The notes under the pieces: generated by a model | Databases searched by the model: none | What the model was told of the DNA's origin: nothing | What the model saw: the letters and a program-made list of their open reading frames with translations, nothing else | Translations under genes and position numbers: made by a program | Shown here: piece after piece, positions 9,887-37,300 of the stretch | Numbering within the stretch: the first letter of the stretch is position 1 | Layout of the letters: every line of letters starts with the position of its first letter | IMG/VR virus record: IMGVR_UViG_3300048694_000377 | Location: 1 to 62,876 of that record | Length of the DNA: 62,876 nt | Source: a virus | Lineage: Duplodnaviria; Caudoviricetes | Reading direction: 5' to 3' (one strand)

Positions 9887-10177
9887 AAGAGGAGAGAGCA
9901 ACTACAAGCTGCGGCGGAGAGAGAACCGCAGCATTCCGATCATACCGATTCCTACGGGTCCCTTCAAGGGGGTGGTTTTGTATATTGTGATTTTGTAGTT
10001 TGCTACGGAGAATTTAATGGGGGTGGGGGGTGTTTAATTTCAATTTGCGGTATCGGGTGAGTGGATTAGAGTGTAGTGGGCCCCTACCTCCCCTTCGCTG
10101 GGTTTTGGGGGGCTGGGGTAGCTGGGGGGCCGGATCGCTGGGCCAAGTAGACCGGATCAGGGGCTGCTGCTGGGCGT

Positions 10178-10222: not shown

Positions 10223-10927
10223 TTACTGGTTGTGTGTCTTGCCCATTCGCATATCGTCCAGTGTGTCGAATAATGATTGATCTTCGATCGTGTATGCGAT
10301 ATCAGTGTATTCGTCCAGGATCTCCAAGACTGCCTCCAGTTTCTCGATATCAGTACATTTGGCTGCAGCTTCTTTGACCTGAGCTCTCAGGCTGCGCAGC
10401 TCTTCGCCATGCGCTTTATTCTCTTCGCTGGTCTTGAGCTTCAACACTTTGTCCAGCTCTTTTTGTTTTTTCTTCAGGTCTTTGTTCTCAGGGTTTTTTG
10501 CCATAGCTTCGTACGTCTTCGCAAGCTGATCACGCAAGTGGATCGCTGGTGTGTCTTCGTACTTTTGCAGCAGCTCTTCGTTTGCTTTCTCACGTTCAGC
10601 ACGTTTCTTTTCGGCTGCAGCCGATGTACTGGTAGGTTTGGTCAACCCGAACAAGTTGTTCAAGAGCTTGGCAAAATCAGCCCAGGCTGCATCGTGCGCA
10701 TTACCAGTGAGCTGCGGGTTTGCGTGAGCATGACCAGCAACCCATTCCATGCGGTAGTTTTCCCAGCGGTCAAAGCTGGGGTTTGTCCCCATCGTCCTGG
10801 CTGCGTCTTGAGCTATGCTCAGGGTTTCCATTTTGCTCTTGGCATAACGTCCACCTTGTTCATAGGCTGCGTTTTTGTCGTCAAAGCTCAAAGCTTCCAC
10901 GGCTGCTGCTACTGTAGTTTTCTCCAT
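10223..10927 (-). CDS. Early helical protein, paralog A
   Basis: 234 aa with SD, upstream elements and terminator; similar to 11151-11777. Confidence 0.8.
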   Translation of the reverse strand: MEKTTVAAAVEALSFDDKNAAYEQGGRYAKSKMETLSIAQDAARTMGTNPSFDRWENYRMEWVAGHAHANPQLTGNAHDAAWADFAKLLNNLFGLTKPTSTSAAAEKKRAEREKANEELLQKYEDTPAIHLRDQLAKTYEAMAKNPENKDLKKKQKELDKVLKLKTSEENKAHGEELRSLRAQVKEAAAKCTDIEKLEAVLEILDEYTDIAYTIEDQSLFDTLDDMRMGKTHNQ

Positions 10928-11048: not shown

Positions 11049-11075
11049 GACATGATGACCAAAAATCACTATGTC
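11049..11075. repeat. 27-bp palindrome, copy 1
   Basis: GACATGATGAC-CAAAA-ATCACTATGTC (1 mismatch). Confidence 0.8.
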
Positions 11076-11082
11076 CAAGCAG

Positions 11083-11109
11083 GGAACGGTCATTTCAACG
11101 CGGGAGCCC
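11083..11109. repeat. 27-nt exact direct repeat, copy 1
   Basis: GGAACGGTCATTTCAACGCGGGAGCCC, also at 11935-11961. Confidence 0.9.
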
Positions 11110-11137
11110 AAAAAAACCTGAGGGAATTTCCCTCAGG
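11110..11137 (-). terminator. Intrinsic terminator after early paralog B
   Basis: CCTGAGGGAAATTCCCTCAGG-TTTTTTT. Confidence 0.85.
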
Positions 11138-11150
11138 CAAACTGGCTAGA

Positions 11151-11777
11151 TCAACCTATTTTGATATCAAAATTGAGTTCATCAAGGACATCACACGCCG
11201 CATCGATTCGGATCGGGTCGTTACATTCCCTCGCCAACTTGAACAGTCGATCCCTTGATGCTTTCAACGCATCACGATTGACCTCTGCCTGAGCCTTTGC
11301 CCTTTGTTTTACTGCCCTTTCCAATTCACCCAACAATGAGGATTTTTTCATCGGGTTCTGTGCTTGGTCGGCGTATGCTTTCTGTAGCATGCCAGTTAAG
11401 TCGGCGTCAGAATAGGCCTCAAATCGTTGCGCCAATTCCTGAGCCTTTTTGGCCCGTTCCTGAGCCTTTTTTTCGGCGGCCTCCGATTTTGCTTTTGGTG
11501 CTTCGATACCATAGGACTCGGTGAGCCTGCCCTTGAATCGGGCAAAGGCCTTGTCGGCGCTGTTCCCCTTTGCCTGTGGTTTGACGCTAACATAGGCATT
11601 GACCCAACTGATGCGGCATTGGTTCCAATGGTCAATGGTTGGATCGGTTCCAAGGGTTCTAGCGTAAACCTCTAACGAGCCCTGTGCGTCAATTTCCGAT
11701 TTTGCAAACATGCGCCCTGCCTCGCATGCGCCCTCAATGGTGGGCACTGCCACCTGTGTTGCTATTGTGTTGCTCAT
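11151..11777 (-). CDS. Early helical protein, paralog B
   Basis: 208 aa. GTDPTIDHW..CRISWV matches GTNPSFDRW..YRMEWV in paralog A, and both have an AAEKK coil. Confidence 0.8.
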   Translation of the reverse strand: MSNTIATQVAVPTIEGACEAGRMFAKSEIDAQGSLEVYARTLGTDPTIDHWNQCRISWVNAYVSVKPQAKGNSADKAFARFKGRLTESYGIEAPKAKSEAAEKKAQERAKKAQELAQRFEAYSDADLTGMLQKAYADQAQNPMKKSSLLGELERAVKQRAKAQAEVNRDALKASRDRLFKLARECNDPIRIDAACDVLDELNFDIKIG

Positions 11778-11801
11778 ACATTCTCCAAGTTAGTGAGTGT
11801 T

Positions 11802-11828
11802 AACATGATGACCCCTTGTCATCATGTC
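11802..11828. repeat. 27-bp palindrome, copy 2
   Basis: AACATGATGAC-CCCTT-GTCATCATGTC (1 mismatch). Confidence 0.85.
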
Positions 11829-11834
11829 CCTACG

Positions 11835-11867
11835 ATAATAGCCAGTCACCTTACATGGCGCTTACAA
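11835..11867 (-). promoter_or_regulatory. 7-4-7 direct-repeat box plus -10 upstream of paralog B
   Basis: TTGTAAG-CGCC-ATGTAAG, 9 nt, TATTAT. Confidence 0.5.
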
Positions 11868-11934
11868 AATTTACAAAAAGCTAAAATTTTGCAATAGGGA
11901 GACAAATGTCCTATGCACAAGACAATTCGGGAAC

Positions 11935-11961
11935 GGAACGGTCATTTCAACGCGGGAGCCC
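11935..11961. repeat. 27-nt exact direct repeat, copy 2
   Basis: Identical to 11083-11109. Confidence 0.9.
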
Positions 11962-12050
11962 CGCAAAAAGCGCCAAAAACGCCTGTTTTTTGTATACAAT
12001 TTTTAAATGTTCTAAAAAAACACGGAACAATACACTTTTTCAGAACAACC

Positions 12051-12063
12051 TAAGTTGTTGATT
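12051..12063 (-). promoter_or_regulatory. IHF consensus site
   Basis: AATCAA-CAAC-TTA matches WATCAANNNNTTR. Confidence 0.65.
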
Positions 12064-12267
12064 TTAAAGGAAAGTTCATTATTGTTCTATTGTTCTTGGG
12101 GTTTTTGAGAATTTTCGAATTTTCACTTTTGCTGTTCGCACGGGCCTCTCGGCAAGTGCCCCTCAGGGGGGCGGTAGTTTCCCGCGAATATATTTTTTCC
12201 CGCACTCTCCCATAACATTAAGAACATTGATTATTATTTAAGCAAATAAAAAATAAAAACATATATA

Positions 12268-12280
12268 AATCAATAACTTA
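12268..12280 (+). promoter_or_regulatory. IHF consensus site
   Basis: AATCAA-TAAC-TTA with an upstream A-tract. Confidence 0.7.
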
Positions 12281-12492
12281 CGCCAAAAATCAAATGTTCG
12301 AATTTTTCCTTGTAATGTTCGAATTTTTCATTTTTTTAGAACATTGTAAAACTTCTACATTCATCGCTACCCTCATTCTGAATACCTTTGCCAGACATAT
12401 TGTTCTATCCCCCTTTTGTTACATTCAAAACAATCCCCTGCCGAACAACCCAGATCATCCCCCGACACATCCCTTGCAAAGCAGACAACCAC

Positions 12493-12521
12493 TTGACATT
12501 GTATAGTATTTATGGTATACT
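12493..12521 (+). promoter_or_regulatory. Strong sigma70 early promoter
   Basis: TTGACA, 17 nt ending in TGG, TATACT (extended -10). Confidence 0.85.
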
Positions 12522-12580
12522 CAGGCTCTGCCTTCGAGCAGGGGGTCGGCTATGCGTGTTTCACTCATGCCCACCTCAGC

Positions 12581-12607
12581 GACAAAATGACACATGGTCA
12601 CTATGTC
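12581..12607. repeat. 27-bp palindrome, copy 3
   Basis: GACAAAATGAC-ACATG-GTCACTATGTC (perfect). Confidence 0.9.
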
Positions 12608-12652
12608 GTTTCCATCGGTCTATCAACATTTCTTCCCTTTCAGGAGTCAGCA

Positions 12653-12898
12653 ATGCAAATTCGATCTGCCAACAACGCATCACATCAACCTATCAAAGTA
12701 GCAAACCCAATCATCATTGCCTTCGACCGCAACTGGAACGAACTATTCCGCAAGCCACTCAGCGAGATCGAAGGCATGGCATACGGCGTGCGGGAAGACT
12801 ACGAGTCTGGCTATCGCGGTATCAAATCCAACTGGTGTGTCAGCAAATCAACCGACCCCATCATCCAACGCATCTGCGCGTGGGCAACGCCAAACTGA
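12653..12898 (+). CDS. Early hypothetical protein
   Basis: AGGAG SD before ATG 12653; first gene after the promoter. Confidence 0.7.
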   Translation: MQIRSANNASHQPIKVANPIIIAFDRNWNELFRKPLSEIEGMAYGVREDYESGYRGIKSNWCVSKSTDPIIQRICAWATPN

Positions 12899-12912
12899 AA
12901 GCAAACCTCACC

Positions 12913-13155
12913 ATGACATACAAACGATACAAAAACGGCTACTGCCAAGCTGTTGGATGCAACAACGGCATCGGTAAGAAACGTGCATCTTACGGACACC
13001 TCATCTGCAAGGGTTGCGGAGAAGAGCAATCCCGCATCACACGACAGTCTTGGACTGTGCTACAAGAGTATGGAAAGGGTGGCTATATGTTTGTCACCCC
13101 GACCTCTGCGCCGACTGCACTTAAACAAACCAACCAGAAGGAGATACGGACATGA
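12913..13155 (+). CDS. Small zinc-finger protein
   Basis: CQAVGC...ICKGCGE; 3' part of track ORF 12388-13155. Confidence 0.65.
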   Translation: MTYKRYKNGYCQAVGCNNGIGKKRASYGHLICKGCGEEQSRITRQSWTVLQEYGKGGYMFVTPTSAPTALKQTNQKEIRT

Positions 13156-13373
13156 GCGAACTGCGGATCTGGGAAATCGAAGGAGAAGGGGAGTGCGACA
13201 AAGTGATGGACAGTCACCCTGTCCAAAAAACACCAGTCTCACTACGCATCTATGAACACGGCATGCACTTGGCTGAAGCCATGCGCAAAGCCAACTTGAT
13301 CGAGCAAGCCAACGACCTTGAAATCTGGGTGCTTGGCATGGTGCATGAACTGGAGGAAGCAAATGAAACGTAA
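13152..13373 (+). CDS. Early hypothetical protein
   Basis: ATGA coupling with the upstream gene; 73 aa. Confidence 0.65.
   Translation: MSELRIWEIEGEGECDKVMDSHPVQKTPVSLRIYEHGMHLAEAMRKANLIEQANDLEIWVLGMVHELEEANET
13197..13223. repeat. 27-bp palindrome, copy 4 (intragenic)
   Basis: GACAAAGTGAT-GGACA-GTCACCCTGTC (1 mismatch). Confidence 0.8.
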
Positions 13374-13575
13374 TCTTGTTGTAAGGGAACTGATCAATAA
13401 TCCAAATCGAAACGCAGGCAAGCACAGTAGTGCGAAGCAAAAAGCATTATCAACCGCAACCATGAAGGAACTTGATATGGAACTAGTCAAACACGCAGAC
13501 GAACTGCAACACGCCAAAGACTTGGAGGACTTTGGTTTATTCGATGCAAGCAAGCAAGCCCTCAAGACAAAGTGA
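13363..13575 (+). CDS. Early hypothetical protein
   Basis: GGAGG SD; MKRNLVVRELINNPNRNAGKH. Confidence 0.65.
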   Translation: MKRNLVVRELINNPNRNAGKHSSAKQKALSTATMKELDMELVKHADELQHAKDLEDFGLFDASKQALKTK

Positions 13576-13592
13576 CCGGCAGTCATCTTGTC
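13566..13592. repeat. 27-bp palindrome, copy 5
   Basis: GACAAAGTGAC-CGGCA-GTCATCTTGTC (perfect), spanning a stop codon. Confidence 0.9.
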
Positions 13593-13625
13593 ATTCAACT
13601 CAACTGCAACTACTAAGGAAACAAA

Positions 13626-14717
13626 ATGGAAGTCAGACTCTCAACCGAAATCTCTTTGAACGAAGCCGAGGAACTCATCCTTGCTATCGGACATACAAAC
13701 GCTGTGCATCTTGTCGGCGAACCAGGGGTCGGCAAAACTGCGATGTTTGAGCGCATCGTAGACAGAACAGGGTTTCGTGGCATCTACATAGATACGCCTA
13801 ATACAGAGTTAGGTGACATTGGCATCCCCATGCCCAACCATGAGACCAAGACCACATCTCTGTATCCCAACGACCATTGGGGTTTCCACACTGGTGAACC
13901 ACTGGTGATTTTCATTGACGAATTCACCAAGCCCTCATCACAGGCTGTCCAAAACATGCTACACCCACTGCTCAACGAGCGCCGGATCGGTGGCTTTAAG
14001 CAACACAAAGACACCATCGTCATCACGGCGGGTAACAACACAACCGATGGCGTGGGCGACATGCTCAAAGCTCACTCTTTGAACCGACTCACTGTTGTGC
14101 CTATCAAGAAACCACACGCAGGGTTTAACGCCGATGGTAGCGTGGATGAGGACTCATGGGGTATGTGGGCTATCCAGAACGACATTGCAGAGGAAGTGGT
14201 GGCTTGGATCAAAGCCTACCCGCATGCCCTTGCATCGTATCGTGACCCAAGCCAAGCCGACAACCACTACATCTTCAACCCCAAGACTCCGCAGAAATCG
14301 TATGTGTCGCCTCGCTCACTTGCACGGGCAAGCAACATCGTCAAGGGCAGAGACTCCATCACACGCAATGCTCTCATTACTGCGCTATCAGGAACCATTG
14401 GTGAGCCTGCTGCCAGAGACATGGTGGCGTATGTGGAAGTGTCCGACTCCCTGCCGACATGGGCAGAAGTGATCGCTGACCCCAAGGGTGCGAAACTCCC
14501 ATCGTCACCTGCGGCGTTGAACATCATGGCGTTTGGTGCTTTGCAACGGATTGACCGAGCAACTGTGGGCCCATGGTTTGACTACCTGAAACGCACACCG
14601 AAAGAACTTCAATCGGTGTTTTGCTTGTCTGGTATGAAGCACCCCGAGAAGAAGCAACTCATGGTAACGAACGGCGCATTTGTCAACTGGATGCGTGACA
14701 ACCAGTATTTGTTCTGA
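13626..14717 (+). CDS. MoxR-like AAA+ ATPase
   Basis: GEPGVGKT Walker A, IFIDEF Walker B, TAGN sensor, SPRS motif. Confidence 0.85.
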   Translation: MEVRLSTEISLNEAEELILAIGHTNAVHLVGEPGVGKTAMFERIVDRTGFRGIYIDTPNTELGDIGIPMPNHETKTTSLYPNDHWGFHTGEPLVIFIDEFTKPSSQAVQNMLHPLLNERRIGGFKQHKDTIVITAGNNTTDGVGDMLKAHSLNRLTVVPIKKPHAGFNADGSVDEDSWGMWAIQNDIAEEVVAWIKAYPHALASYRDPSQADNHYIFNPKTPQKSYVSPRSLARASNIVKGRDSITRNALITALSGTIGEPAARDMVAYVEVSDSLPTWAEVIADPKGAKLPSSPAALNIMAFGALQRIDRATVGPWFDYLKRTPKELQSVFCLSGMKHPEKKQLMVTNGAFVNWMRDNQYLF

Positions 14718-14729
14718 GAGGAAAGAAGC

Positions 14730-14858
14730 ATGACTGCACATGAACTCTACGAAGCCCTTGATCAAATGAAGATCAAGTATGAAGTGGTGGAAATCTTTGA
14801 AGGCGCAAGGTTCTTGCGTATCGAAGTGGAAGAGGAGGATGAAGATGCTGACGCATGA
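14730..14858 (+). CDS. Small acidic hypothetical protein (42 aa)
   Basis: MTAHELYEALDQMKIKYEVVEIFEG...; SD present; fills the gap. Confidence 0.55.
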   Translation: MTAHELYEALDQMKIKYEVVEIFEGARFLRIEVEEEDEDADA

Positions 14859-14934
14859 AGAGAAGATGGTGCGAGTGGTGCTACTCGTTGCCGTCATTGT
14901 GGTGTTACTTGATATCTTAATTTGGAGGCCATGA
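14845..14934 (+). CDS. 29-aa single-TM peptide
   Basis: MLTHEEKMVRVVLLVAVIVVLLDILIWRP*; GAGGAGG SD; coupled to the next gene. Confidence 0.55.
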   Translation: MLTHEEKMVRVVLLVAVIVVLLDILIWRP

Positions 14935-15206
14935 TGGGAGAAAGCCGCAAAGTTATGGATCACGAAGACCAAGTGGTCATGCACGACTTGTTCGAAGCCT
15001 TGACCGACTTCATCGGTGAGAAGGATGTGGACATGAATGTGATCATGCACGCCTTGTGTCGCACCATTGCATTTGGTGGTGTGCAACTAAATCGCCACGA
15101 CGAAGTGACCAAGCGTCACTTTGTCTCCATGGTGGTTGAATCTGTGAGTGCCCACTACGACCATTTCGTTGAAATGATTCAACAACACGGAGAGCATGAT
15201 GACTGA
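14931..15206 (+). CDS. Hypothetical protein
   Basis: GGAGG SD; ATGA coupling. Confidence 0.65.
   Translation: MMGESRKVMDHEDQVVMHDLFEALTDFIGEKDVDMNVIMHALCRTIAFGGVQLNRHDEVTKRHFVSMVVESVSAHYDHFVEMIQQHGEHDD
15099..15125. repeat. 27-bp palindrome, copy 6 (intragenic)
   Basis: GACGAAGTGAC-CAAGC-GTCACTTTGTC (1 mismatch). Confidence 0.85.
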
Positions 15207-15351
15207 AGCCGACTTTATTTTTGCTTGGCTGTTAGCAAGCCGAGTCAATCCGAGCGTGCGATGGACTGATGAATCCACGCTCAACCATATCAACAAAGCA
15301 AAGCAGATCTATCGCAAGATCATGGAGAGTAGCAATGCAACTAACCGCTGA
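15196..15351 (+). CDS. Small hypothetical protein (51 aa)
   Basis: GGAG SD; MMTEADFIFAWLLASR...; fills the gap. Confidence 0.5.
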   Translation: MMTEADFIFAWLLASRVNPSVRWTDESTLNHINKAKQIYRKIMESSNATNR

Positions 15352-16579
15352 ACAACGCATCGAGAGGGTGCATGTCAACCTGATGCAGAGTAAATTGTTC
15401 TGTCAATTCTCTGGTTTATTCATGGTAGGCAAAGTCACAGTAGATGACGACTGCCCGACCGCATACACCAACGGGCGAGATGTAACCTACGGACGCAACT
15501 TTGTGGGGGTGCTCAACGACAAGCAACTCGCTTTCCTTGTATTGCATGAAGCCTTGCACAAAGCGTATCGGCACATGACTGTGTGGGCAGACATTGCAAA
15601 GATCGACAAGCGTCTGACCAACAACGCCATGGACTATGTGATCAACTTGCAAATCAGGGACGCCGACCCCTACGAGCAAGAGGTTGCCATGCCAAGAGAC
15701 CCGCAGACTGGCAAGCTCATGGGCTTGTATGACGAGCGGTTTCGTGACATGGATACCAAACAAGTCTTTAACCTACTTCTGGAAGAATCCGGTGGGGGTG
15801 GCGGTGGTGGTAGCGGGAAAGGCAAAGGACAAAGTGACGGCGGGTCACCAAGTCAAGGCGAGAGTGACAACTTTGACGACCACGACTGGGATGGTGCGCA
15901 AGATATGTCCGAGGAAGAAGAGGAAGAACTCGGGCGCGAGATCGACTCCGCATTGCGTGAAGGTGCTATGTTAGCAGGGCGCATGAAAGGCAATGTCGAT
16001 CGCAACATCGACCAACTCTTGCATCCTAAGGTGGACTGGCGTGAAGCACTGCGAGACTTCATCAAACTTGCAACCAAGGGAGGTGATCAGTCTACATGGC
16101 GCCGACCAAACCGCAGGTTTCTTGGCGTAGATATCGTGATGCCAACATCGGAAAGCCGTAAAGCTGAGATGTTTGTTCTTGGTATCGACACATCAGGATC
16201 GATCGGAGGGCAAGCGCTTGCACAGTTTCTTGGCGAAGTCAAGACCATTTGCGACGAGGTGGCGCCCGAGACCATCGAACTTCTGTATTGGGATAGCCAT
16301 GTCGCACGACGAGAAACATACAAGGGGCACGAGGTGCAAGACCTCACCGAGACCACGAAACCCGCAGGGGGTGGTGGCACTACGCCTGAGTGTGTGCCGA
16401 GGTTTATGGTTGAGAACCGCATCGAACCACAGTGCGTGATCATGCTGACCGATGGCTACTTCAATAGTGATGGGTGTGGGGACTGGGCGGGCGTGTCTGC
16501 GCCTGTTCTGTGGTGTGTGTATGGCAAGCGTGACTTTGTGCCAACCACTGGCCAAAGCGTTTATGTCGATGGATTGTGA
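15335..16579 (+). CDS. HExxH metallopeptidase-like plus vWA domain protein (MoxR partner)
   Basis: TAYTNG, LHEALH, Gly-rich linker, MIDAS DTSGS, GGGT and LTDGY motifs. Confidence 0.85.
   Translation: MQLTAEQRIERVHVNLMQSKLFCQFSGLFMVGKVTVDDDCPTAYTNGRDVTYGRNFVGVLNDKQLAFLVLHEALHKAYRHMTVWADIAKIDKRLTNNAMDYVINLQIRDADPYEQEVAMPRDPQTGKLMGLYDERFRDMDTKQVFNLLLEESGGGGGGGSGKGKGQSDGGSPSQGESDNFDDHDWDGAQDMSEEEEEELGREIDSALREGAMLAGRMKGNVDRNIDQLLHPKVDWREALRDFIKLATKGGDQSTWRRPNRRFLGVDIVMPTSESRKAEMFVLGIDTSGSIGGQALAQFLGEVKTICDEVAPETIELLYWDSHVARRETYKGHEVQDLTETTKPAGGGGTTPECVPRFMVENRIEPQCVIMLTDGYFNSDGCGDWAGVSAPVLWCVYGKRDFVPTTGQSVYVDGL
15828..15854. repeat. 27-bp palindrome, copy 7 (in the Gly linker of the vWA gene)
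   Basis: GACAAAGTGAC-GGCGG-GTCACCAAGTC (1 mismatch). Confidence 0.8.
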
Positions 16580-16818
16580 GAGATAGTATGAAACAAGACA
16601 TTGATACCAAGACCATCGATATGTTCGGAGCCGAGGGCAATACGATAAGGAAGCGTATGACCCTCAGCATTTCTGCGCAAGCAGGTGATCGTTTGCGTGC
16701 GATGCAAGGACAACTTGAAAGGAGGATTGGCTTTGAGCCTTCACTCGCACAGATCGTGGAGTATTTAATCAGCAACTCTGACAACATGACTGATGGTCAC
16801 TTTGTCGCAACTGAATAA
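16576..16818 (+). CDS. Small putative DNA-binding protein (ribbon-helix-helix-like)
   Basis: RKRMTLSIS strand followed by two helices ending SLAQIVEYLI. The fold is an inference. Confidence 0.5.
   Translation: MRDSMKQDIDTKTIDMFGAEGNTIRKRMTLSISAQAGDRLRAMQGQLERRIGFEPSLAQIVEYLISNSDNMTDGHFVATE
16780..16806. repeat. 27-bp palindrome, copy 8
   Basis: GACAACATGAC-TGATG-GTCACTTTGTC (perfect). Confidence 0.9.
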
Positions 16819-16832
16819 CTTGGAGAAGCAAC

Positions 16833-17717
16833 ATGGAAATCGCACAACAGTTTGACTCGGTAGGCATTGCTACTTCTAGCATGCTAGTAGAACTCAACAT
16901 CTCTTGCTGGACTGCTCGCAAGCTCGACAAGAAAGTATCGGAGGAGGTTGACCAAGCCAAGAACACCAAGGTGAAAGCAGGCAACTACCACAAGCATTTG
17001 CTTGCAGGTAACCCACACTTGGAAGCAGTCAACAAGTATGCCGCCAAGATTCGCTTGTGGAATACCAAGCAGACTATCCCTTGGTCTGACAATGGTGGGC
17101 GCATCGTGACGATGGAGAACTTAATCAATGGTGGATACAAACGCCAACTTGACGAACACAAGGTGGAGTTTGAAAGACTGGCGGATAATTTCATCAAAGT
17201 CTACCCTACGCTGATATCAGCGGCTGCGTTCCAACTGGGTGACTTGTTCGACCGAGACGAGTATCCTGAGCCAGAAGCCGTTGCCAAGAAGTTCCGGTTT
17301 CAGTATACGCTGATGCCCCTGCCAACATCGGGTGATTTTCGTATCGACATAGGCGAGCAAGTCAAGGCTGAGCTGATGCAACAATACGAGCAGCACTTCA
17401 ACGAGCGACTCGACACAGCCATGCGTGATGTGTGGGGCCGACTGCATGAGTGCTTGTCACACATGAGCGAGCGACTCGCAAGCGATGAGGAAGGCAACCG
17501 CAAGGTTTTCCATGGCACGCTACTGACAAACGCCAGAGAGATGGTGGGTTTACTGCGGCGACTCAATGTCACCAATGACCCTAAGCTAGAAGAGGCACGG
17601 CGTGATCTTGAAGCTGCGTTGATCAACGCCGACACCGAGACCATCAAAGAAAGCGACTATGTGCGTGAGACTGTGAAGACCAAAGTCGACGCCATCATCA
17701 ACAAGTATTCGTGGTAA
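16833..17717 (+). CDS. Conserved phage protein (possibly DUF3150-like)
   Basis: 294 aa, LVELNISCWTARKLDK, helical. Family call from memory. Confidence 0.55.
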   Translation: MEIAQQFDSVGIATSSMLVELNISCWTARKLDKKVSEEVDQAKNTKVKAGNYHKHLLAGNPHLEAVNKYAAKIRLWNTKQTIPWSDNGGRIVTMENLINGGYKRQLDEHKVEFERLADNFIKVYPTLISAAAFQLGDLFDRDEYPEPEAVAKKFRFQYTLMPLPTSGDFRIDIGEQVKAELMQQYEQHFNERLDTAMRDVWGRLHECLSHMSERLASDEEGNRKVFHGTLLTNAREMVGLLRRLNVTNDPKLEEARRDLEAALINADTETIKESDYVRETVKTKVDAIINKYSW

Positions 17718-17731
17718 GAAAGGAAGCAACT

Positions 17732-18619
17732 ATGACACCGACACAACTGCCAGAGATTTTGCAAGGCAAGATCGAATTCAACAAGTATGCGGGTAAACCA
17801 GTTGAAGCAAAGCTGATCACCATACTGTGCGAGGCATCCATGTTCAACCCTGCGTTTACCTACAAGGTAACCGACACCCATGGGTATGGTGATAAGGAGA
17901 AAATCAGTTCGGTTGCTGTTTACGAGGGCGCACAACCTGTTGGCAAGATAGGCGCATCCATGCGCTATCGGCGTAACGACAACGAGCCTGTTTTTGAAGT
18001 TTCTTCCGAGGGCATAAACAAGCGCCGTGGCACACAGTCAACCAAGCACTTGAAGATTGCGGTCAAAGTCATCAAGGAAATGTTCAAACCCGCACCCATT
18101 GAGAAACGAGCGGAAGAGTTGGGCGATACTGTATCGGACAAGATCAACCGCATGGTGCGCCGTGCCGCCGATCATGTGGAGGGTTCGGTGCGAATGGCAG
18201 CGAGAGAAGTGGTGGCTTTCCTTGCAGAGTATGACGAGCTTGAGACCAAGCCAGCTAAAGTGCCAACCAACGTGATGGCGAAACTACCACGCGAGTGGCG
18301 AATGTATATTGATAACCATCGCATATCTCGTGCAGTCCAAGCGTCTTTCTCTACTAACACAGGCGCATGCCTACGCATAGAGGATGATGGTTCGCTATCC
18401 ATGTGGGACATGGCAACGAAGGAATTCACCGAGCACAAGTCGACATACGAGTTGCCTACTAACTATCAGGAGAAGATCACCATTCTCAAACTGATGGATG
18501 AAGACCAACCTGTTGAACATATCGGCGTTAAGTTTAGCGACTTCACGCACACCAACGGAGTGCGCCGTCAGATGACATACTTCTTTCTAGTTGCGGGTGA
18601 TACCTATGTTGTAAGTTGA
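17732..18619 (+). CDS. Hypothetical protein
   Basis: About 295 aa; AAGGA SD. Confidence 0.75.
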   Translation: MTPTQLPEILQGKIEFNKYAGKPVEAKLITILCEASMFNPAFTYKVTDTHGYGDKEKISSVAVYEGAQPVGKIGASMRYRRNDNEPVFEVSSEGINKRRGTQSTKHLKIAVKVIKEMFKPAPIEKRAEELGDTVSDKINRMVRRAADHVEGSVRMAAREVVAFLAEYDELETKPAKVPTNVMAKLPREWRMYIDNHRISRAVQASFSTNTGACLRIEDDGSLSMWDMATKEFTEHKSTYELPTNYQEKITILKLMDEDQPVEHIGVKFSDFTHTNGVRRQMTYFFLVAGDTYVVS

Positions 18620-18625
18620 TAGCAC

Positions 18626-18652
18626 GACACACTGACACTTAGTCACTTTGTC
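18626..18652. repeat. 27-bp palindrome, copy 9
   Basis: GACACACTGAC-ACTTA-GTCACTTTGTC (perfect). Confidence 0.9.
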
Positions 18653-18656
18653 CCTT

Positions 18657-18685
18657 AACCTCGGGTTTACCCCCGAGGTTTTTTT
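18657..18685 (+). terminator. Intrinsic terminator ending the first early operon
   Basis: AACCTCGGG-loop-CCCGAGGTT-TTTTT. Confidence 0.85.
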
Positions 18686-18696
18686 ACGCCCAAGTA

Positions 18697-18725
18697 TTGA
18701 CTTGGGTTTTTTTATGCACTATACT
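18697..18725 (+). promoter_or_regulatory. Sigma70 promoter
   Basis: TTGACT, 17 nt, TATACT. Confidence 0.8.
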
Positions 18726-19978: not shown

Positions 19979-20304
19979 ACTATTACATTTTTGCAAACGG
20001 TATCGAATTAGTTTTTGACGAAATCAATGATGGGGTGTTTGCTTGTTTTGTGGGCAGGGAGAAAATGCTTGCCTTAAGAAATTACAAACACCCGATATTT
20101 GAGCAATCGGTCTGGGACTTGGAGTTGAGCGTGCGTGCGACCAACTGTCTGAAGTCGGAGGGAATCGAAACGATTGGTCAACTGCTTGAGCGTTTGAGAG
20201 ATAACTGCCACTACCTCACAAGAGTTCCTAATATTGGCAAAGTGACTGAGCGAGAAATAAAAGATGCGCTCAGAAACAGAGGTTTGAGTTGGGGGGAGAA
20301 ATGA
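19975..20304 (+). CDS. Stand-alone RNA polymerase alpha C-terminal-domain protein
   Basis: VWDLELSVRATNCLKSEGIETIGQL...VPNIGKVTEREIKDALRNRGLSWG matches the alpha-CTD signature. No alpha-NTD. Alternative start at 20065. Confidence 0.85.
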   Translation: MNYYIFANGIELVFDEINDGVFACFVGREKMLALRNYKHPIFEQSVWDLELSVRATNCLKSEGIETIGQLLERLRDNCHYLTRVPNIGKVTEREIKDALRNRGLSWGEK

Positions 20305-21017
20305 ACCTCACCGCCCTTCAAGTTGAGCTGCTCAAGTGGCAACACTTTGTCCGTGAGCAAAAGACCCAGCACATCATCCTCTTTGAAGGGGTCGATGCCG
20401 CAGGCAAGTCCGGTGCCATCAAACGCTTCATGGAGCATTTAAACCCAAGGTACGCGCGTGTGGTTGCTTTGGACAAGCCGACCGAGCAGGAAGCCCGTCA
20501 GTGGTACTGGCAAAGGTACATCCAGCAATTCCCGAAAGCAGGGGAGATATGCTTCTTTGACCGCTCTTGGTACAACCGTGCAGGGGTTGAGCCCGTCATG
20601 GGGTTTTGCCGTAAGGATGAGACCTTTCTTTTTTTGCATGAGTGCCGTGATCTTGAGCCAGTTTTTAAACGCGCAGGCATCAGGCTGACAAAATTCTTCT
20701 TTTCCATTACCAGAGAGGAGCAAGCCAAACGCTTTGAAAGCAGGCAGACAAGTCCCCTGAAAGTGGGCAAAATGAGTGCTGTGGACTTGGAGAGTCAGAG
20801 GTTGTGGGAAGAGTATGGTGCCGCATACCAGACCATGATTGACACAACGCCTGATTGGATTATCGTCAACTCCAATGACAAAACCAAAGCCCGCATCGCC
20901 GCCATGCAGTACGTCCTCTTGAACAATGACTACCTTGGCAAAGACTTATCCGCCATTGGGGAAATCGACCCCGACATTTTATGGAGCCATGATGAAAAAG
21001 AAACTGACCATCGCTGA
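20301..21017 (+). CDS. ppk2: Polyphosphate kinase 2
   Basis: FEGVDAAGKSGAIKR, LDKPTE.E, QWYWQRY, FDRSWYNR and SITREEQ motifs; single domain. Confidence 0.92.
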   Translation: MNLTALQVELLKWQHFVREQKTQHIILFEGVDAAGKSGAIKRFMEHLNPRYARVVALDKPTEQEARQWYWQRYIQQFPKAGEICFFDRSWYNRAGVEPVMGFCRKDETFLFLHECRDLEPVFKRAGIRLTKFFFSITREEQAKRFESRQTSPLKVGKMSAVDLESQRLWEEYGAAYQTMIDTTPDWIIVNSNDKTKARIAAMQYVLLNNDYLGKDLSAIGEIDPDILWSHDEKETDHR

Positions 21018-31319: not shown

Positions 31320-31345
31320 GGCCCTGCTTCGGCGGGGTCTTTTTT
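31320..31345 (+). terminator. Terminator at the convergence of the two arms
   Basis: GGCCCTGC-TTCG-GCGGGGTC-TTTTTT. Confidence 0.8.
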
Positions 31346-34300
31346 ATCTGTTGCCGTAGTAGAGCATTGGGCCGGTGCGACCGTACAATTTTTCGTCCAG
31401 CTTTGCGCCCATAGCTTCGGCTTGTGCTTTTGCTTCTGCACGGGCGTCAAACGACTTGTCGATAGCATCGCCGTCAATAGCGGCTTGCGGGTATTTAAGG
31501 GAAAACTCGTTGGCTTTTGCCAAGGCATCTGTGTAACTTGGCGTACCACGCTCCATCCACAGCCGGTTTAACAAAGTGTTACGACGGTCAAGGATTTTTT
31601 GCTGGTAGGTTTTGGCTTGGATAGCAGCTTTTTGCGCCAGCGCTAGTTTTTCCGGTTGCAATCCAATCGCTTGCATAGCCAAATTCCAAGTGGTGAATTC
31701 TTCTGGATACAAGCCACCGATGACTTCGCCGCTACGGGTTGTTGCGCCTTCAGTACCGAGTCTATATGCAGTCCCCGGTTTTGAAAACAGCGCGGGCGCA
31801 GCTTTCTCGTACGCTTTGAGGAATTGACCTTCACTCGCCAATTGCCAAGCGTCGGCCCAATTGAACCCAAGGCCAACGGACGGGCCAAGATTAGCAAACA
31901 CTTCTTGTTGAAACGATTCGCGGGCGTCTGGCGAATAACGACCTTCGCGCCACCACAAATTTTTCATATCCAAACTGACACGGTCTGCAAGAGACGTGCC
32001 GGTCAAAGCAGCAACAGGCCCCCGTGCAATAGCTAAGCCAAGTTGTTTACCCGCTTCTTCAGACTTGCCAGCCGCCATACCCATCTTGGTAAAGATCGCG
32101 GCCGCCGCTCCGCCAACGTCTTTCGCCATAAAGTTGTAGAACCAGTTCTCCCAATCAAAGAACTCGTCGTCGTCATCATCCGGAGCAAACATTTTGATCA
32201 ATGTGCCCAACATTGAGAAGAAGGGCTGAGCTGCGATACCACCAAAGAGGAATGTCATGCCCATAACGCCAGCCAAACGTTTCATACCTTCACGGTAAAT
32301 CTCTTTGCGGTACGCTTCGGCTTCGTCCAAACGTTGGTCAATTACAGTTTGCGACAACCCGTCCTTAATCATTTGCTGCCGAAACTGCTCAATCTCAGCT
32401 TTACGAAACGGAGCACCAACACTCAGATAGAAGTCTCTCAGTACGTTGTATGTAGCTGTGATGGCGTACTGTTTGAACTGTGTAATCAAGTTGACTGATG
32501 GCACCGTAAAGATACGACCCTTCATCTGACGGGTATAGTCACCAAGCGTCAAACCAGCAATATCGCGTGCTTCTTGAATGGCAAGCTCAAATGCTTCGTT
32601 TGAAGTGTACTTAGCTGGTTGCCCAGTGGTAGGGTCGCGTTGCACCACACCACGAATGTCTGTGCGGTCGGCTTTAGAAAACTTCTCATGTGCAAGTTCA
32701 AACGCAGTCAGCAGTGCAACTTCTCGGTTGAAACGTTCGCCCTGATGGAACAAGCCCGACATCACCTTTTTGATCGTATTGACTTTGCCAGTATAGAGGG
32801 CAGACGGCTGCTCACTCATGTCAAAAATGTCATTGGTCATGGAGATGTTGATATCTCCGTCGTCAATAAATCGGTCTGCGGCTCGCTTAAGCAATGGGTT
32901 TAGCGTAGCGCCTTCTACAAGAGAGGGGAAAGATACCTGCATAAAGTTGCCGGTTACCAGTGGCGCCAGCGAACGCTTAGGCATCGTAGCTGAATACAAA
33001 GCGGCGTTCTTGAGCATCAGCGCATTTGTTCTGGCATAACCATATCGAGCGCCAATTCGTGGCATTGTAAGTACGGCCATGCCGACAGTGTTCAACAACA
33101 CGCTTGCAGGCGCCGACAGCATGAAGTAGAACGTTGTGTTTGTAACCGCACCGACAGCGCGAGCGACAGGACTTGTGTCTTCTACGCCAAGAACGTTCTT
33201 TGTGCGGTTTTCCAACTCAAGCACATAATCACGATACACCGCTCCTTGCTGGGGAGTAATGAAATGATTAGCCTCCAAGTCGTCGATATAGCCCCGTGCA
33301 TTGTTGATGTTGTTGACGAATGGCTCGGCAAACTTAAAACGTGCTTGTTGATATGCGCTATGCACGGCGGTCTTGGAGAACACCCGCAGCATGTCTGCGC
33401 TTGCACCTTGAATAGCTTTGCGGTTGATAAACATCTTGCGCATGCTCTGTTCAGGCAGCAACAAATAGATCAATTGGTTAATGCTATCTTTGATTTCAGC
33501 CTTCAACCCCGGCACATCGGTAGCAGTCAGCCCATCTACAACTTTTTCCATGTCACGCAAAACTTGCGTGGTAGCAACATTCTTTGAGAACAATTCCGAG
33601 ATGCCATCGCCCATGCGCATGGTTTCAGCGGCGGCTTGCTGTTGTTTATTCCCAGCCAACAATTGGCGGCGACGCTTGTTAAACGCAAAATTCCGTGCAG
33701 TTGCGCTTTCAAAAGTATAGAACTCTTTAAAGTCGCCTTTACCAATTTGGAACCAGTGTTTGCCAAAACGACGCAACGGGAAGTAAGGTTTGACCAATTT
33801 ATCTGGGCCAAACTGTTCATTGATTTTGCGGATCATTTCTTGGCGCTCGGCCTTGGGCAACCCCAAGGCGCGTTGCTTCATCGTGCGGACCATCTCTTTG
33901 ACAGAGTCGGCGTAGAACTCACGCACTTCACGATAGAGCTGTTTGAACTCAGGCTTCAGAGCATTCCAAGCATTGTCAAGCGCATCAGGTGCAGCACCGG
34001 GTGCTGGACCCAAGTCTGGGTCACGAGAACGAATGGTCGCCTCAATCATGATGCGGCCCATCAAACCAGATTGTTTGGGGTTGTTGCTTTGTAGCTTAGA
34101 CCATTTTTGAACAATGTCTTCCGCAATTTTAATTTTCTTACCGCGATATGACACCATCTGCTCAACGATGTTAACGGCGCCTGTAATTTGCGGGAACTTG
34201 GTTCGAGTCAGGTCTTTGAGCTGGCGCAATTGCAGCACTGGCAAAACGACAGCACGGACTGCTGTGCCGCTGGCGTTCCACAAAGCACCGCTCAAGTCTT

Positions 34301-37300
34301 TTAAAGCCGAGCCCAAAGGCACGCGGCCTTTTACCGCATCGGACAGTTCATCTTGGATTGTCGTTTGCACCGACTCGGCGGTGCGCCAAGTGTCAGGCTT
34401 GCTGATTGGGCCGCGAACGCGCTTCCCCTTGGCAAACACCAAAGGCATAGCAGCTACACCTGCCGGACGTTGCGGAGACAACAACTCATTGATGGCAGAC
34501 ATAGAGGCACCGGCTAAATTGCCAAGGCCAAACATATCTGCCACTACCTGCAAAAACCGATTGAATAGCGAAGTCTTTCTGGGTGGGTATTGCACACCTT
34601 TGAGCTTGGCTTGGAACTTTGGGTTTGTCATCGCTTCGGCGACAAACTCAGATATGTTTCTAAACCCATACTCATCGGGCGACAGTTTGGTCTGCGCATA
34701 CGCATACATTGCAAGCAAATCTTTCTTAGCCTGAGCCTGCGCAGGGGTTAGAGCTACCTTTTCGGCAAGAATGTAATCCGTAGCAGCATGCACAATTTCA
34801 TGCAACACTGTGCGGTTGCTGGAGCCAAAGAAGTCGTCCGGTTTGATATTGATCGTATCAAGGGTCGGCGCAAAAAAGCCGCGTGCCGTCAGTCCCGGCA
34901 TGGACTTGTTGTAGGCAAGGCGCACTGCGCCAAGCTCAGTGTTCACTGGGCCAATGTTGATGCCCGACCCCGGTAGCCTACGCAACCCCTCAAACACTCG
35001 CTCAAGGTTCTCGGCCTTGTCGTAGTCTTTGAAGTGCTGCTCGTAGAACTTGGGAGCCTCACGGCTCAAGTATGCAAACAGCCGAAGTTGCTCTTGCGCA
35101 GAACGGTCATCTATTACTCTTTTAACCAGCGCACGTTGGTTGTTAAAAATAATGTTGGTTGGCAAATTCAGTTCGGCCAAACGTTTAGCCAACTCTGAAT
35201 AAAGACCTGACGTGGTGCGTGCAATTGCACGCAGGGCTCCGTTAACATCGTTGCGGTTGATAGCATCTACGATGTCTTGGTTCAGTCCTTTTACGCTTGC
35301 TGGAGCAGTGCTTCCAGTTGTTCGGGGGATTCCGCTTGTTGGGTTAACAGCACCAGCGGCTCGTAGAGCTTCATACCCTGTTGGTCCCCTTCCTGCCGGT
35401 AGAGGCCGTATTGTGTCCGGGTCGCGACTTGCAGCGCTTCCATCCGATGCTGAGGCGGAACCTTTTTCGTAGTCTCTAAGAGACTTTGCAGTGTTTGCAG
35501 TTGTTGAACGTCCATATGCTTCCCTCATTGCGGTGTATGTTGATTCGTGCCGAGTCAGCACATCCATGAGTGCATCACGGAAGTAGTCGGCAAGACCTTC
35601 GTCGGCAAAGTACTGGCGCACTTTTAGCATGTGCGCGTTGTGGCCTTCACCGTGGCCCATGTCTCCAGTATGGGCGATTTCGTGGGTCATAGTTTCCCAC
35701 AAATACTCTCGCACACCAAACAGTGTCTTGGCCCCGAAATCATAGAACGGATTAACCAACACGGCCTTGTATGGCACTTTAATATGTACGCCACCGTATT
35801 GTTTGTCGACCGATACACCCGCAAAGAACAAATTCTCAGGCTTCAATACATCGTAGCCATACATGCGGCTATCGGCTGCGGCTTCTTTCATTTCCACCAT
35901 CAGCGTGCCAAGTTCAGCAAAGAACTGCTCGGGATTGCCATACTCGCTACCAACCGCAAGTAAGTCAACATTGGTGTTGTTATGGAAGATTGGCAGCTTC
36001 GGGTCTTGCGACATTTGCGTGAGGAAGTCCTCCATTTTGGGGGCTTCTTTTTCCGCTTTGAAAGTGCCTTCTCTTTCTTTTTCTTGTTTTTTAGCAGTAT
36101 CGGCCAGCACTTTGCCAGTGTCTATTGCAACAACTTTAGTACCTTCAATTCGCACTTCTTTTGGCATTGGCGGCAATTCTTTACGCTCACCGGTGCCACG
36201 TTGGTCAAAAGCTTTGCGTAGCTTTTTGGAAGCATCAGCAATATCTTTGCCCGCCTCAACGCGAGGCATAGACACAATATTTTTGAAGTTTTCTTGCAAA
36301 TCTGCGGCTTCATTCCCGCGAGCAATTTTTGCAAGGTATTCTTGCAAAGCCTCGATATCGTTTTTTAACCGACCTTTAAATCGCTCGCGACTATTTTCAA
36401 ACGGATAGTCAGGGTGCTTTGCTTCAACATTAGGTTTGATGTTAACAATAATGTCGTACGGAATTTTTTCTTGTTGGTTTAGCTTGAAATCGGAATTGAA
36501 CTGATACACACCAGAAGAAAGCACTTGGTGTTTAATGCTCCAATTGCTGCCGGAATTACGTTCTTTGCTGAAATAAATGTCAGCGCTACCCCAGTCAAAA
36601 TTAACTTTGAACTGAATGTACTTGTCTGCGGGGAACTCAAGTCCAACTGGCAATGTGGTTACATCATCGCCAAACGAAGATTTTTTTATGGTTTCGACGG
36701 TTACCGGACCAATCAATGGCTGTTGCAACGCATCATAGAATTCAGGATTACCCGAAAAATAAATGTCTTTTTTATCGCCCGTTTTAGGATCAGTATAGTG
36801 TTCAGGAATCTTAACTGTAACAGTCGTGCCGTGCTCGCTTTTTGGCGCAGGTGATTTGACTATCTGAAAATTGCTTTTAGCGATATCTTGAGCCGAAGTA
36901 TCAACCCGTACCCGCACGCCATCTCGAACGGTATCAAGGATCAAACGTTCTGAGCCAAGCATAAACCCCATTTTGGCCAAACCCAAACCGCCGCTTCGTT
37001 GGTTTACAGGAACGTCAGATTTATCGGACCCTGCTACAGTGAAAAACGCGTTGCGAACAATCTCAGGTGTCATGCCCCGAGCGTTGTCAGTTACAGTAAT
37101 GGTACGGGCGTCGTCATCAATGGTAATGGTAATTTTGCCACTTTTATACAGCGGTGTAATTTTTTCACCAGCGCCGTTAACATTTGATACTGCACCCTTC
37201 ACAGCGTCAAATGCGTTTTGCAATAATTCTTTAACTGCAACATCGGCAACTGTACCAGCGTACATATTTGCACCGAGTAATTGGATCAAGCCGCCCATGT

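Follow-up and report, generated by a model that had tools for sequence, protein, structure and literature searches.

The closest described counterpart of the locus reported here is most likely the stoperator system of the Cluster A mycobacteriophages (L5, Bxb1 and TipsytheTRex). The portions of two reports that deal with it describe a repressor that binds many sites in transcribed DNA, with repressors and motifs diverging together, and stoperators that are 13-bp asymmetric sequences, distributed genome-wide in these temperate phages and bound by a monomer with a helix-turn-helix (HTH) and a “stoperator” domain (PMC9283540, PMC6550527). We have analysed IMG/VR virus record IMGVR_UViG_3300048694_000377 (Duplodnaviria; Caudoviricetes; hereafter the window), a complete record of 62,876 bp with terminal repeats, in which nine copies of a 27-bp palindrome, GACA-N3-TGAC-N5-GTCA-N3-TGTC, are dispersed over the early region next to two paralogous genes that we call gA and gB. 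The array is confined to this region, syntenic among relatives and under constraint at the DNA level, and its sequence type co-varies with the gA/gB allele. We lean, with some caution, towards reading the palindromes as double-stranded DNA (dsDNA) operators for the phage's own gA and gB, putatively dimeric, all-helical proteins, in a dispersed-operator repressor system.

As far as those portions of the two reports describe stoperators, the array resembles them in offering many dispersed sites to what would be one phage protein, in transcribed regions as well as at a promoter (here a predicted one), and in the joint divergence of protein and motif, which is seen here as the co-variation with gA/gB. 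It differs from them in that the sites are palindromes of 27-28 bp within approximately 8 kb and the protein is a predicted dimer with no HTH match; furthermore, the Cluster A phages are temperate, whereas no lysogeny genes were seen among the approximately 55 open reading frames (ORFs) scanned in the window. Most likely the array is stoperator-like in its logic but not a member of that family.

Other systems share parts of this organization. The C1 repressor of phage P1, and the repressor of phage phiC31 with its conserved inverted repeats, each act on many operators, several of them away from promoters; both are temperate, with repressors of other families, and in these two cases we know of neither frequent intragenic placement nor an exchange of the inner box with the outer one held constant. 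Intragenic auxiliary operators such as lac O2 within lacZ and the internal operator of gal raise repression by looping, but there one or two auxiliary sites serve a host repressor of known family, whereas here six or seven sites over 6 kb would serve a phage protein. Palindromes scattered over a region, some of them intragenic, are also typical of the plasmid KorB/ParB sites and of matS/MatP. Pfam and PHROG searches revealed no ParB-like or MatP-like protein among the proteins of the region, and the site length, half-site layout and spacing are indeed unlike the matS form quoted in the first-pass annotation of this DNA; nor did the sites match any characterised regulator with a conventional promoter role. 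In lambdoid immunity regions near-identical genomes carry alternative, non-cross-reacting sets of protein and sites, but there the sites are grouped next to the genes and travel with them in one piece, whereas here sites up to 7 kb away, in genes that are 96% identical, have been rewritten. Literature searches on DUF3150, on phiC31 and on dispersed or intragenic phage operators found nothing relevant.

A scan of the whole record at no more than one mismatch returned nine palindromes, four of them perfect and five with a single mismatch (Table 1), which reproduces the positions, and the minimum of 15 out of 16 fixed letters, given in the first-pass annotation. Relaxing the scan to three mismatches returned the identical nine. 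Dinucleotide-preserving shuffles (n=100) yielded no palindrome at up to one mismatch and a mean of 0.41 (maximum 3) at up to three, so that the observed density is not reproduced, and the reversed pattern, used as a control, had no match in the window. Because the window is the whole virus record, the absence of copies outside 11049-18652, originally judged by eye, holds genome-wide. The array of nine is 7.6 kb long, and seven of its sites belong to one operon; inter-site gaps are 369-1846 bp (0.4-1.8 kb had been claimed), and the series does end at the first operon terminator.

The commonest half-site, as had been reported, is GACAAAGTGAC, which accounts for 5 of the 18 half-sites and is favoured by the operon sites, while the two promoter sites have GACATGATGAC as their common half-site. 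Copies 4, 6, 7 and 8 are internal to ORFs, copy 7 being the one previously placed in a glycine linker, and copy 5 overlaps a stop codon. Apart from those at gA, gB and the early leader, the sites lie away from predicted promoters. The genome has its divergence point here: gA and gB are transcribed leftward, each with its own terminator, and the rightward operon encodes small ORFs, a MoxR-like AAA ATPase, a DUF2201 metallopeptidase/VWA protein, the RHH-like ORF, a DUF3150-like protein and one further ORF.

Table 1. Palindromic sites of the window and the genes and signals associated with them
Feature	Position	Strand	Match to palindrome	Context
Site 1	11049..11075		1 mismatch	Between gB terminator and gA; 122 bp upstream of gA ATG
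Site 2	11802..11828		1 mismatch	25 bp upstream of gB ATG; -10-like TATTAT (minus strand, 11835-11840) ends 6 nt before it
Site 3	12581..12607		perfect	Early-operon leader; starts 60 nt past the -10 of the early promoter
Site 4	13197..13223		1 mismatch	Within small ORF 13152-13373; 42 bp past zinc-ribbon gene; position recurs in relatives
Site 5	13566..13592		perfect	Overlaps stop of ORF 13363-13575; 60 bp upstream of ATPase start
Site 6	15099..15125		1 mismatch	Within ORF 14931-15206; found in relatives that keep that ORF
Site 7	15828..15854		1 mismatch	Gly-rich linker of DUF2201 metallopeptidase/VWA protein (15335-16579)
Site 8	16780..16806		perfect	C-terminal tail of RHH-like ORF, just before DUF3150-like gene
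Site 9	18626..18652		perfect	Past last operon gene, 5 bp before terminator
gA, paralog 2, proposed site-binding protein	10223..10927	-		234 aa; 33% identical to gB
gB, paralog 1, proposed site-binding protein	11151..11777	-		208 aa; predicted all-helical
Early promoter, sigma-70 type	12493..12521	+		TTGACA, 17 nt, TATACT; near-consensus; kept in relatives
Early-leader 5′ hairpin	12526..12545	+		Distinct from the palindromes; pair changes on both sides in 3 of 12 sequences
C4 zinc-ribbon protein	12913..13155	+		80 aa; considered as binder, set aside
RHH-like small protein	16588..16818	+		Considered as binder, set aside
Terminator-like hairpin	18657..18680	+		Closes operon and array; next promoter-like site at 18697-18725

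Arrays of this kind are conserved across a large family of phages known from metagenomes. Exact matches were found in at least 119 stretches of viral contigs; among those listed, 62 have two or more copies, and 60 of these 62 also encode homologues of the early module. When 33 loci with an ATPase of 64-88% identity were compared, 32 carried sites (at up to two mismatches). The positions are syntenic: upstream of gA and of gB, in the leader, past the zinc-ribbon gene, some 60 bp ahead of the ATPase, within the VWA linker, ahead of the DUF3150-like gene and following the last gene. Site 5 holds the most constant position among relatives in this comparison of loci, and the position of site 8, between the VWA gene and the next gene, is kept even where the RHH-like ORF is lacking. 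Confinement is also seen in the five relatives for which whole records were scanned: a complete 70.5-kb genome has eight sites within 7.9 kb, three others have seven or eight within 7.6-8.3 kb, and the fifth, with a variant site type, has three within 5 kb, reversed-pattern controls being zero throughout.

The site in the VWA linker is present in 33 of 34 sources, at an offset of 487-544 nt and invariably in frame 1, within a linker that is otherwise variable and of low complexity. In three relatives of differing site type (L130, L132 and L152) its inner box matches the type of its own genome, and the encoded residues change accordingly. Since the frame is fixed and the inner box follows the genome type at the expense of the residues, this site is, by the evidence of the alignments, under constraint at the DNA level.

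No such sites occur at 16 loci whose ATPase is at most 47% identical, and no near match at the DNA level was found among 50,697 phage records. Among cultured phages the ATPase matches are all distant (<30% identity), e.g., those in Vibrio VBP47 and Acinetobacter At2, and gB has no tblastn match. When 185,579 prokaryote species, each represented by a single genome, were searched with a profile of the ATPase, no relative was found. The sequencing runs that contain the window sequence are labelled freshwater metagenomes. The gene arrangement itself is variable: in L285, L287, L296, L299, L305 and L067 the gA-family gene or genes lie upstream of the early operon on the same strand, whereas in the window the arrangement is divergent.

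With 55 further loci added, the outer GACA/TGTC boxes proved constant and the inner 4-mer specific to the genome, with 11 dominant types. A dominant type was apparent in 63 of 73 sources: TGAC (42), TTAC (5), CTAG (4), CCGC (3), TGAG and TAAC (2 each), and TAGG, TGTC, CCAT, TTAG and CGGA (once each). A few genomes have AACA/TGTT as the outer box. We considered whether the two paralogs might be served by two site subtypes, as the gA-promoter sites of L146-L151 are TGAG/CTCA; L139, however, has a single paralog together with TGAC sites, and no consistent rule could be derived.

The presence of a gene says little by itself about which protein reads the sites, for the zinc ribbon and the gA/gB family are both found wherever the upstream region is covered. 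Comparison of alleles between genomes of differing type is more informative. L285 (CTAG) and L287 (CCGC) have ATPases that are 99% identical and DNA that is 89-97% identical, and between them the gA-family gene has been replaced (36% amino acid identity, no nucleotide similarity), the zinc ribbon being 71% identical. At two orthologous sites of this pair, in a 4.25-kb block of 96% identity, the outer nucleotides agree at 8 of 8 positions and the flanks at 94-97 of 100, against 5-6 of 19 for the inner portion. Within a clade of seven genomes the identity of gA is 55-94% in the nine pairs of the same type and 31-38% in the 12 pairs of different type. Across 48 genomes, median gA/gB identity is 88% for the same type (n=25) versus 41% for different types (n=3) where the ATPases are at least 90% identical, and 66% (n=18) versus 38% (n=13) where they are 80-90% identical; the corresponding zinc-ribbon medians are 84 versus 71 and 66 versus 64. 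It is this co-variation that singles out the gA/gB family, from which we surmise that it is probably the specificity determinant.

The first-pass annotation had proposed several binders, among them the two paralogs, the RHH-like protein and a host factor; the paralogs have held up, their alleles changing with site type, and the other two have not. Recognition by another phage protein, either the C4 zinc ribbon or the RHH-like protein, we consider unlikely. The zinc-ribbon gene is flanked by sites as well as being present in every relative with upstream coverage, and its model combines a helix with a β-hairpin; but the protein has neither a family match nor a significant fold match, and it does not track the type, being 99% identical between L310 (TGAC, N5) and L311 (TAAC, N6), where the ATPase is also 99% and gA only 62% identical, and 81% identical between L306 (CTAG) and L280 (CCGT). 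As for the RHH-like gene, it contains site 8, but it is absent from L125, L134-136, L139-147 and others that keep arrays, including full ones of 8-10 sites in L134-136, L146/147 and others, and its β-strand residues vary among phages of the same type. An operator of the Arc/MetJ/CopG kind would be expected to have an RHH protein wherever the sites are, and here it does not.

That a host DNA-binding protein recognises the sites, with the inner-box variation reflecting different hosts, is hardly credible. A few single matches do occur in Limnohabitans and Burkholderiaceae contigs, but phages with 99% identical ATPases differ in type along with a phage gene, which argues against a host factor. 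At least 120 motif stretches were found in prokaryote genomes, and among those listed 109 are single and the remainder are clusters spaced 8-48 bp apart, without a single kilobase-spaced array; by our estimate, approximately 140 single matches are expected by chance in the 596 Gb searched. Of the listed clusters, just one is accompanied by early-module genes. This is L166, a 3.1-kb contig in a Methanoregula metagenome-assembled genome (MAG), which carries the motif together with homologues of the last two operon genes and of the next gene and is probably a misbinned phage fragment.

The first-pass annotation had also preferred protein recognition of dsDNA over RNA hairpins, and the family-wide data support this. 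Across 147 distinct sites there is almost no variation at the fixed positions and the centre is unconstrained in sequence, its length being set by the genome at 5 nt in most and 6 nt in some. Complementarity between the N3 arms, described as mostly lacking, is at shuffle level in two of the three positions (65 versus 57.6±5.3 and 49 versus 48.4±5.0) and in excess at the third (89 versus 62.5±5.3). Because the sites are symmetric, have a variable centre and largely non-complementary N3 arms, and show no G·U bias, they are read as dsDNA bound by a symmetric dimer.

It is very unlikely, in our opinion, that the palindromes function instead at the RNA level, as hairpins of the early and leftward transcripts, i.e., as processing, stabilising or protein-binding elements. 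All nine are potentially transcribed, the leader is structured, with a separate 5′ hairpin that covaries, the inner boxes invariably remain complementary when they change, and sense-strand G·U pairs account for four of the five window mismatches. The last feature is restricted to the window and was rejected as a sign of RNA: family-wide, 154 distinct sites oriented by transcription contain 80 mismatched stem pairs, of which 19 are sense G·U and 15 antisense A·C, the other 46 being of neither kind. Moreover, within a genome the loop is free and the stem fixed, the reverse of most RNA-protein sites, and the sites match no Rfam family. Elements of the nut/boxB, RNase III or stabiliser kinds would show pairing kept by compensatory and G·U changes, with conservation of the loop or structure and not of the stem sequence, a pattern that the palindromes lack. 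The approach used is able to see RNA structure, since it detected the compensatory changes of the leader 5′ hairpin in relatives; that hairpin is probably a stem that stabilises the mRNA.

Relatives of gA and gB form at least 265 clusters and, of the 120 listed, none has a Pfam domain or an informative name. The AF2 model of gB is confident (pLDDT 86) and all-helical. A sequence-profile comparison of gB with PDB gave weak coiled-coil matches alone, and in the protein atlas its matches are unnamed viral clusters, with a lead of 0.81 to DUF3102. Modelling supports dimerisation of gB: the homodimer prediction reached an ipSAE of 0.75 (best control 0.00), a mark reached by 20 of 30 solved homo-pairs and by 1 of 23 single chains, with at least 94% of contacts agreeing between runs and a partner pLDDT of at least 81. 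The predicted pairing involves the N-terminal domain and the last helices. The most conserved stretch of gA and gB is a basic helix following an invariant proline, and our guess would be that this helix reads the DNA.

In many lineages, including at gB in the window, the site starts 5-8 nt past a predicted -10-like hexamer and 22-62 nt before the ATG of the gA/gB gene. This would be the layout of a classical autoregulated operator, a site on the regulator's own start, which in the window is seen before gB (at a predicted promoter) and is missing at gA. Since the site would cover the gA/gB start and the others lie off promoters, this geometry favours operator-type repression in which one promoter-proximal site is joined by several dispersed ones. 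In the early-operon leader the distance from the -10 of the promoter to the site is 60-61 nt in 14 of 34 sources; a fixed 60-nt distance was entertained as a constraint and dropped, as the values for different lineages range over 35-142 nt.

Upstream of both gA and gB there is also a direct repeat of 20 nt, identical in its two copies (11083-11102 and 11935-11954, minus strand), with none expected in shuffles. It contains a -35-like TTGAAA and, in the window, directly precedes site 1 on the minus strand; in many relatives it lies immediately before palindromes situated 109-150 bp upstream of gA/gB genes.

We infer direct binding by gA and gB, a repressive sign, and an exclusion- or immunity-like benefit that would drive the diversity of types. 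In the proposed sequence of events, host RNA polymerase would initiate at the strong early promoter and at the gA and gB promoters. As gA and gB accumulated they would bind, through half-sites made up of the constant outer box (GACA) and a type-setting inner box, the site covering their own transcription start, giving negative autoregulation, and likewise the site in the leader and another six within the 6-kb early operon. Bound sites would block or slow transcription and may bridge or loop, such that the early operon would be shut off after a first burst. The silencing would extend to a second incoming genome if it had the same type.

Binding by gA and gB with an effect other than repression (activation or anti-termination of the early operon, shielding of the region from host silencing or nucleases, or bridging and compaction as self-marking), which corresponds to the regional DNA marking proposed in the first-pass annotation, strikes us as rather doubtful. 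The array is regional and stops at a terminator, most sites are far from promoters, the diversity of types would fit the marking of self and non-self, and site 1, like the class located 109-150 bp upstream of the ATG, is where activators often bind. On the other hand, a site over the start, following a -10-like hexamer, is in many lineages the usual place of a repressor, and no ParB, nuclease-inhibitor or other supporting domain was found. Of the roles suggested in the first-pass annotation, parS/matS-like loading, pulling of DNA at entry and cassette recombination received no positive support.

It is likewise highly improbable that the main role of the sites is in recombination, as points at which related phages shuffle their gene cassettes. 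The small genes lying between sites do differ from one relative to another, and there are hybrids of two types; identical 27-mers at 5406 and 10187 of L285, also found at 4647 of L306, a 72%-identical relative, suggest that copying or conversion between sites may occur. Yet the most constant site lies inside a conserved gene (the VWA linker), the break in similarity between L285 and L287 falls approximately 60 nt past a site and not at it, and no recombinase is linked to the array.

Several observations weigh against the repressor reading of gA, gB and their sites. Neither protein has a Pfam or PHROG family or a recognisable DNA-binding motif, and the gB model has no Foldseek match in PDB or BFVD at E ≤0.001. 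Site 1 of the window, about 120 bp upstream of gA, is not over a clear promoter, and the window has two paralogs and yet a single inner type. The evidence for co-variation consists of metagenomic contigs and linkage, and between L285 and L287 the zinc-ribbon region, too, diverges above background. There are also hybrids: L294 combines a gA of CTAG type and a matching site at its own promoter with operon sites of CCGC type, L288 has CCGC sites on the left and CTAG sites on the right, and L310 and L311 each retain one site of the other's type. These may be recent recombinants or chimeric assemblies, or full matching may be dispensable. Finally, as no lysogeny genes were seen among the ORFs scanned, the classical meaning of “immunity” may be inapplicable here.

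That near-identical phages have so many orthogonal types suggests selection arising from the interactions of co-infecting relatives. A more extended proposal, which we put forward tentatively as possible, is that these are apparently virulent freshwater phages with type-specific self-recognition, in which a DNA-binding protein of new fold would act on 5-10 operators dispersed over the early operon, several of them intragenic. A swap of its allele would be followed by short-patch conversion of the operator interiors within flanks that remain 94-97% identical, and the phages would gain by excluding, or escaping from, close relatives that co-infect.

Should binding be as proposed, gA and gB would represent a new family of DNA-binding proteins without a structural relative, using a modular code of constant outer box and swappable inner box and spacing. 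The genomes would then form a rare natural series in which specificity and an entire set of dispersed sites have been switched between almost identical phages, making the evolution of regulatory specificity directly testable with L285/L287 and L310/L311. Phages without lysogeny genes might run an immunity-like, type-specific control of early genes, which bears on competition during co-infection in lakes, and orthogonal pairs of protein and site could become parts for synthetic gene circuits.

The ORFs scanned in the window include terminase, portal, head, tail, lysis and replication genes, and none of them matched an integrase, a partition protein or a known repressor family. Beyond the array, 19975-20304 matches the C-terminal domain of the RNA polymerase alpha subunit (Pfam E 3.4e-15) and adjoins a polyphosphate kinase 2 gene (20289-21017; E 3.5e-75). 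A 2955-aa polyvalent protein (31344-40211, minus strand) has LPD39 and HATPase_c domains and PHROG matches to DarB-like giant proteins; it had been considered as a virion RNA polymerase, and with these Pfam domains found instead, the idea of N4-type hairpin promoters was dropped.

Between gB and the early promoter (approximately 11980-12350) there is an AT-rich sequence with repeated TGTTC/GAACA words, and similar inverted repeats are present at the corresponding place in L132, L137 and L138; these could be the sites of a second regulator or an origin. At approximately 10020-10150, between two minus-strand terminators and upstream of the terminase operon, there are G-rich runs, which might be near a physical end of the genome or a packaging site.

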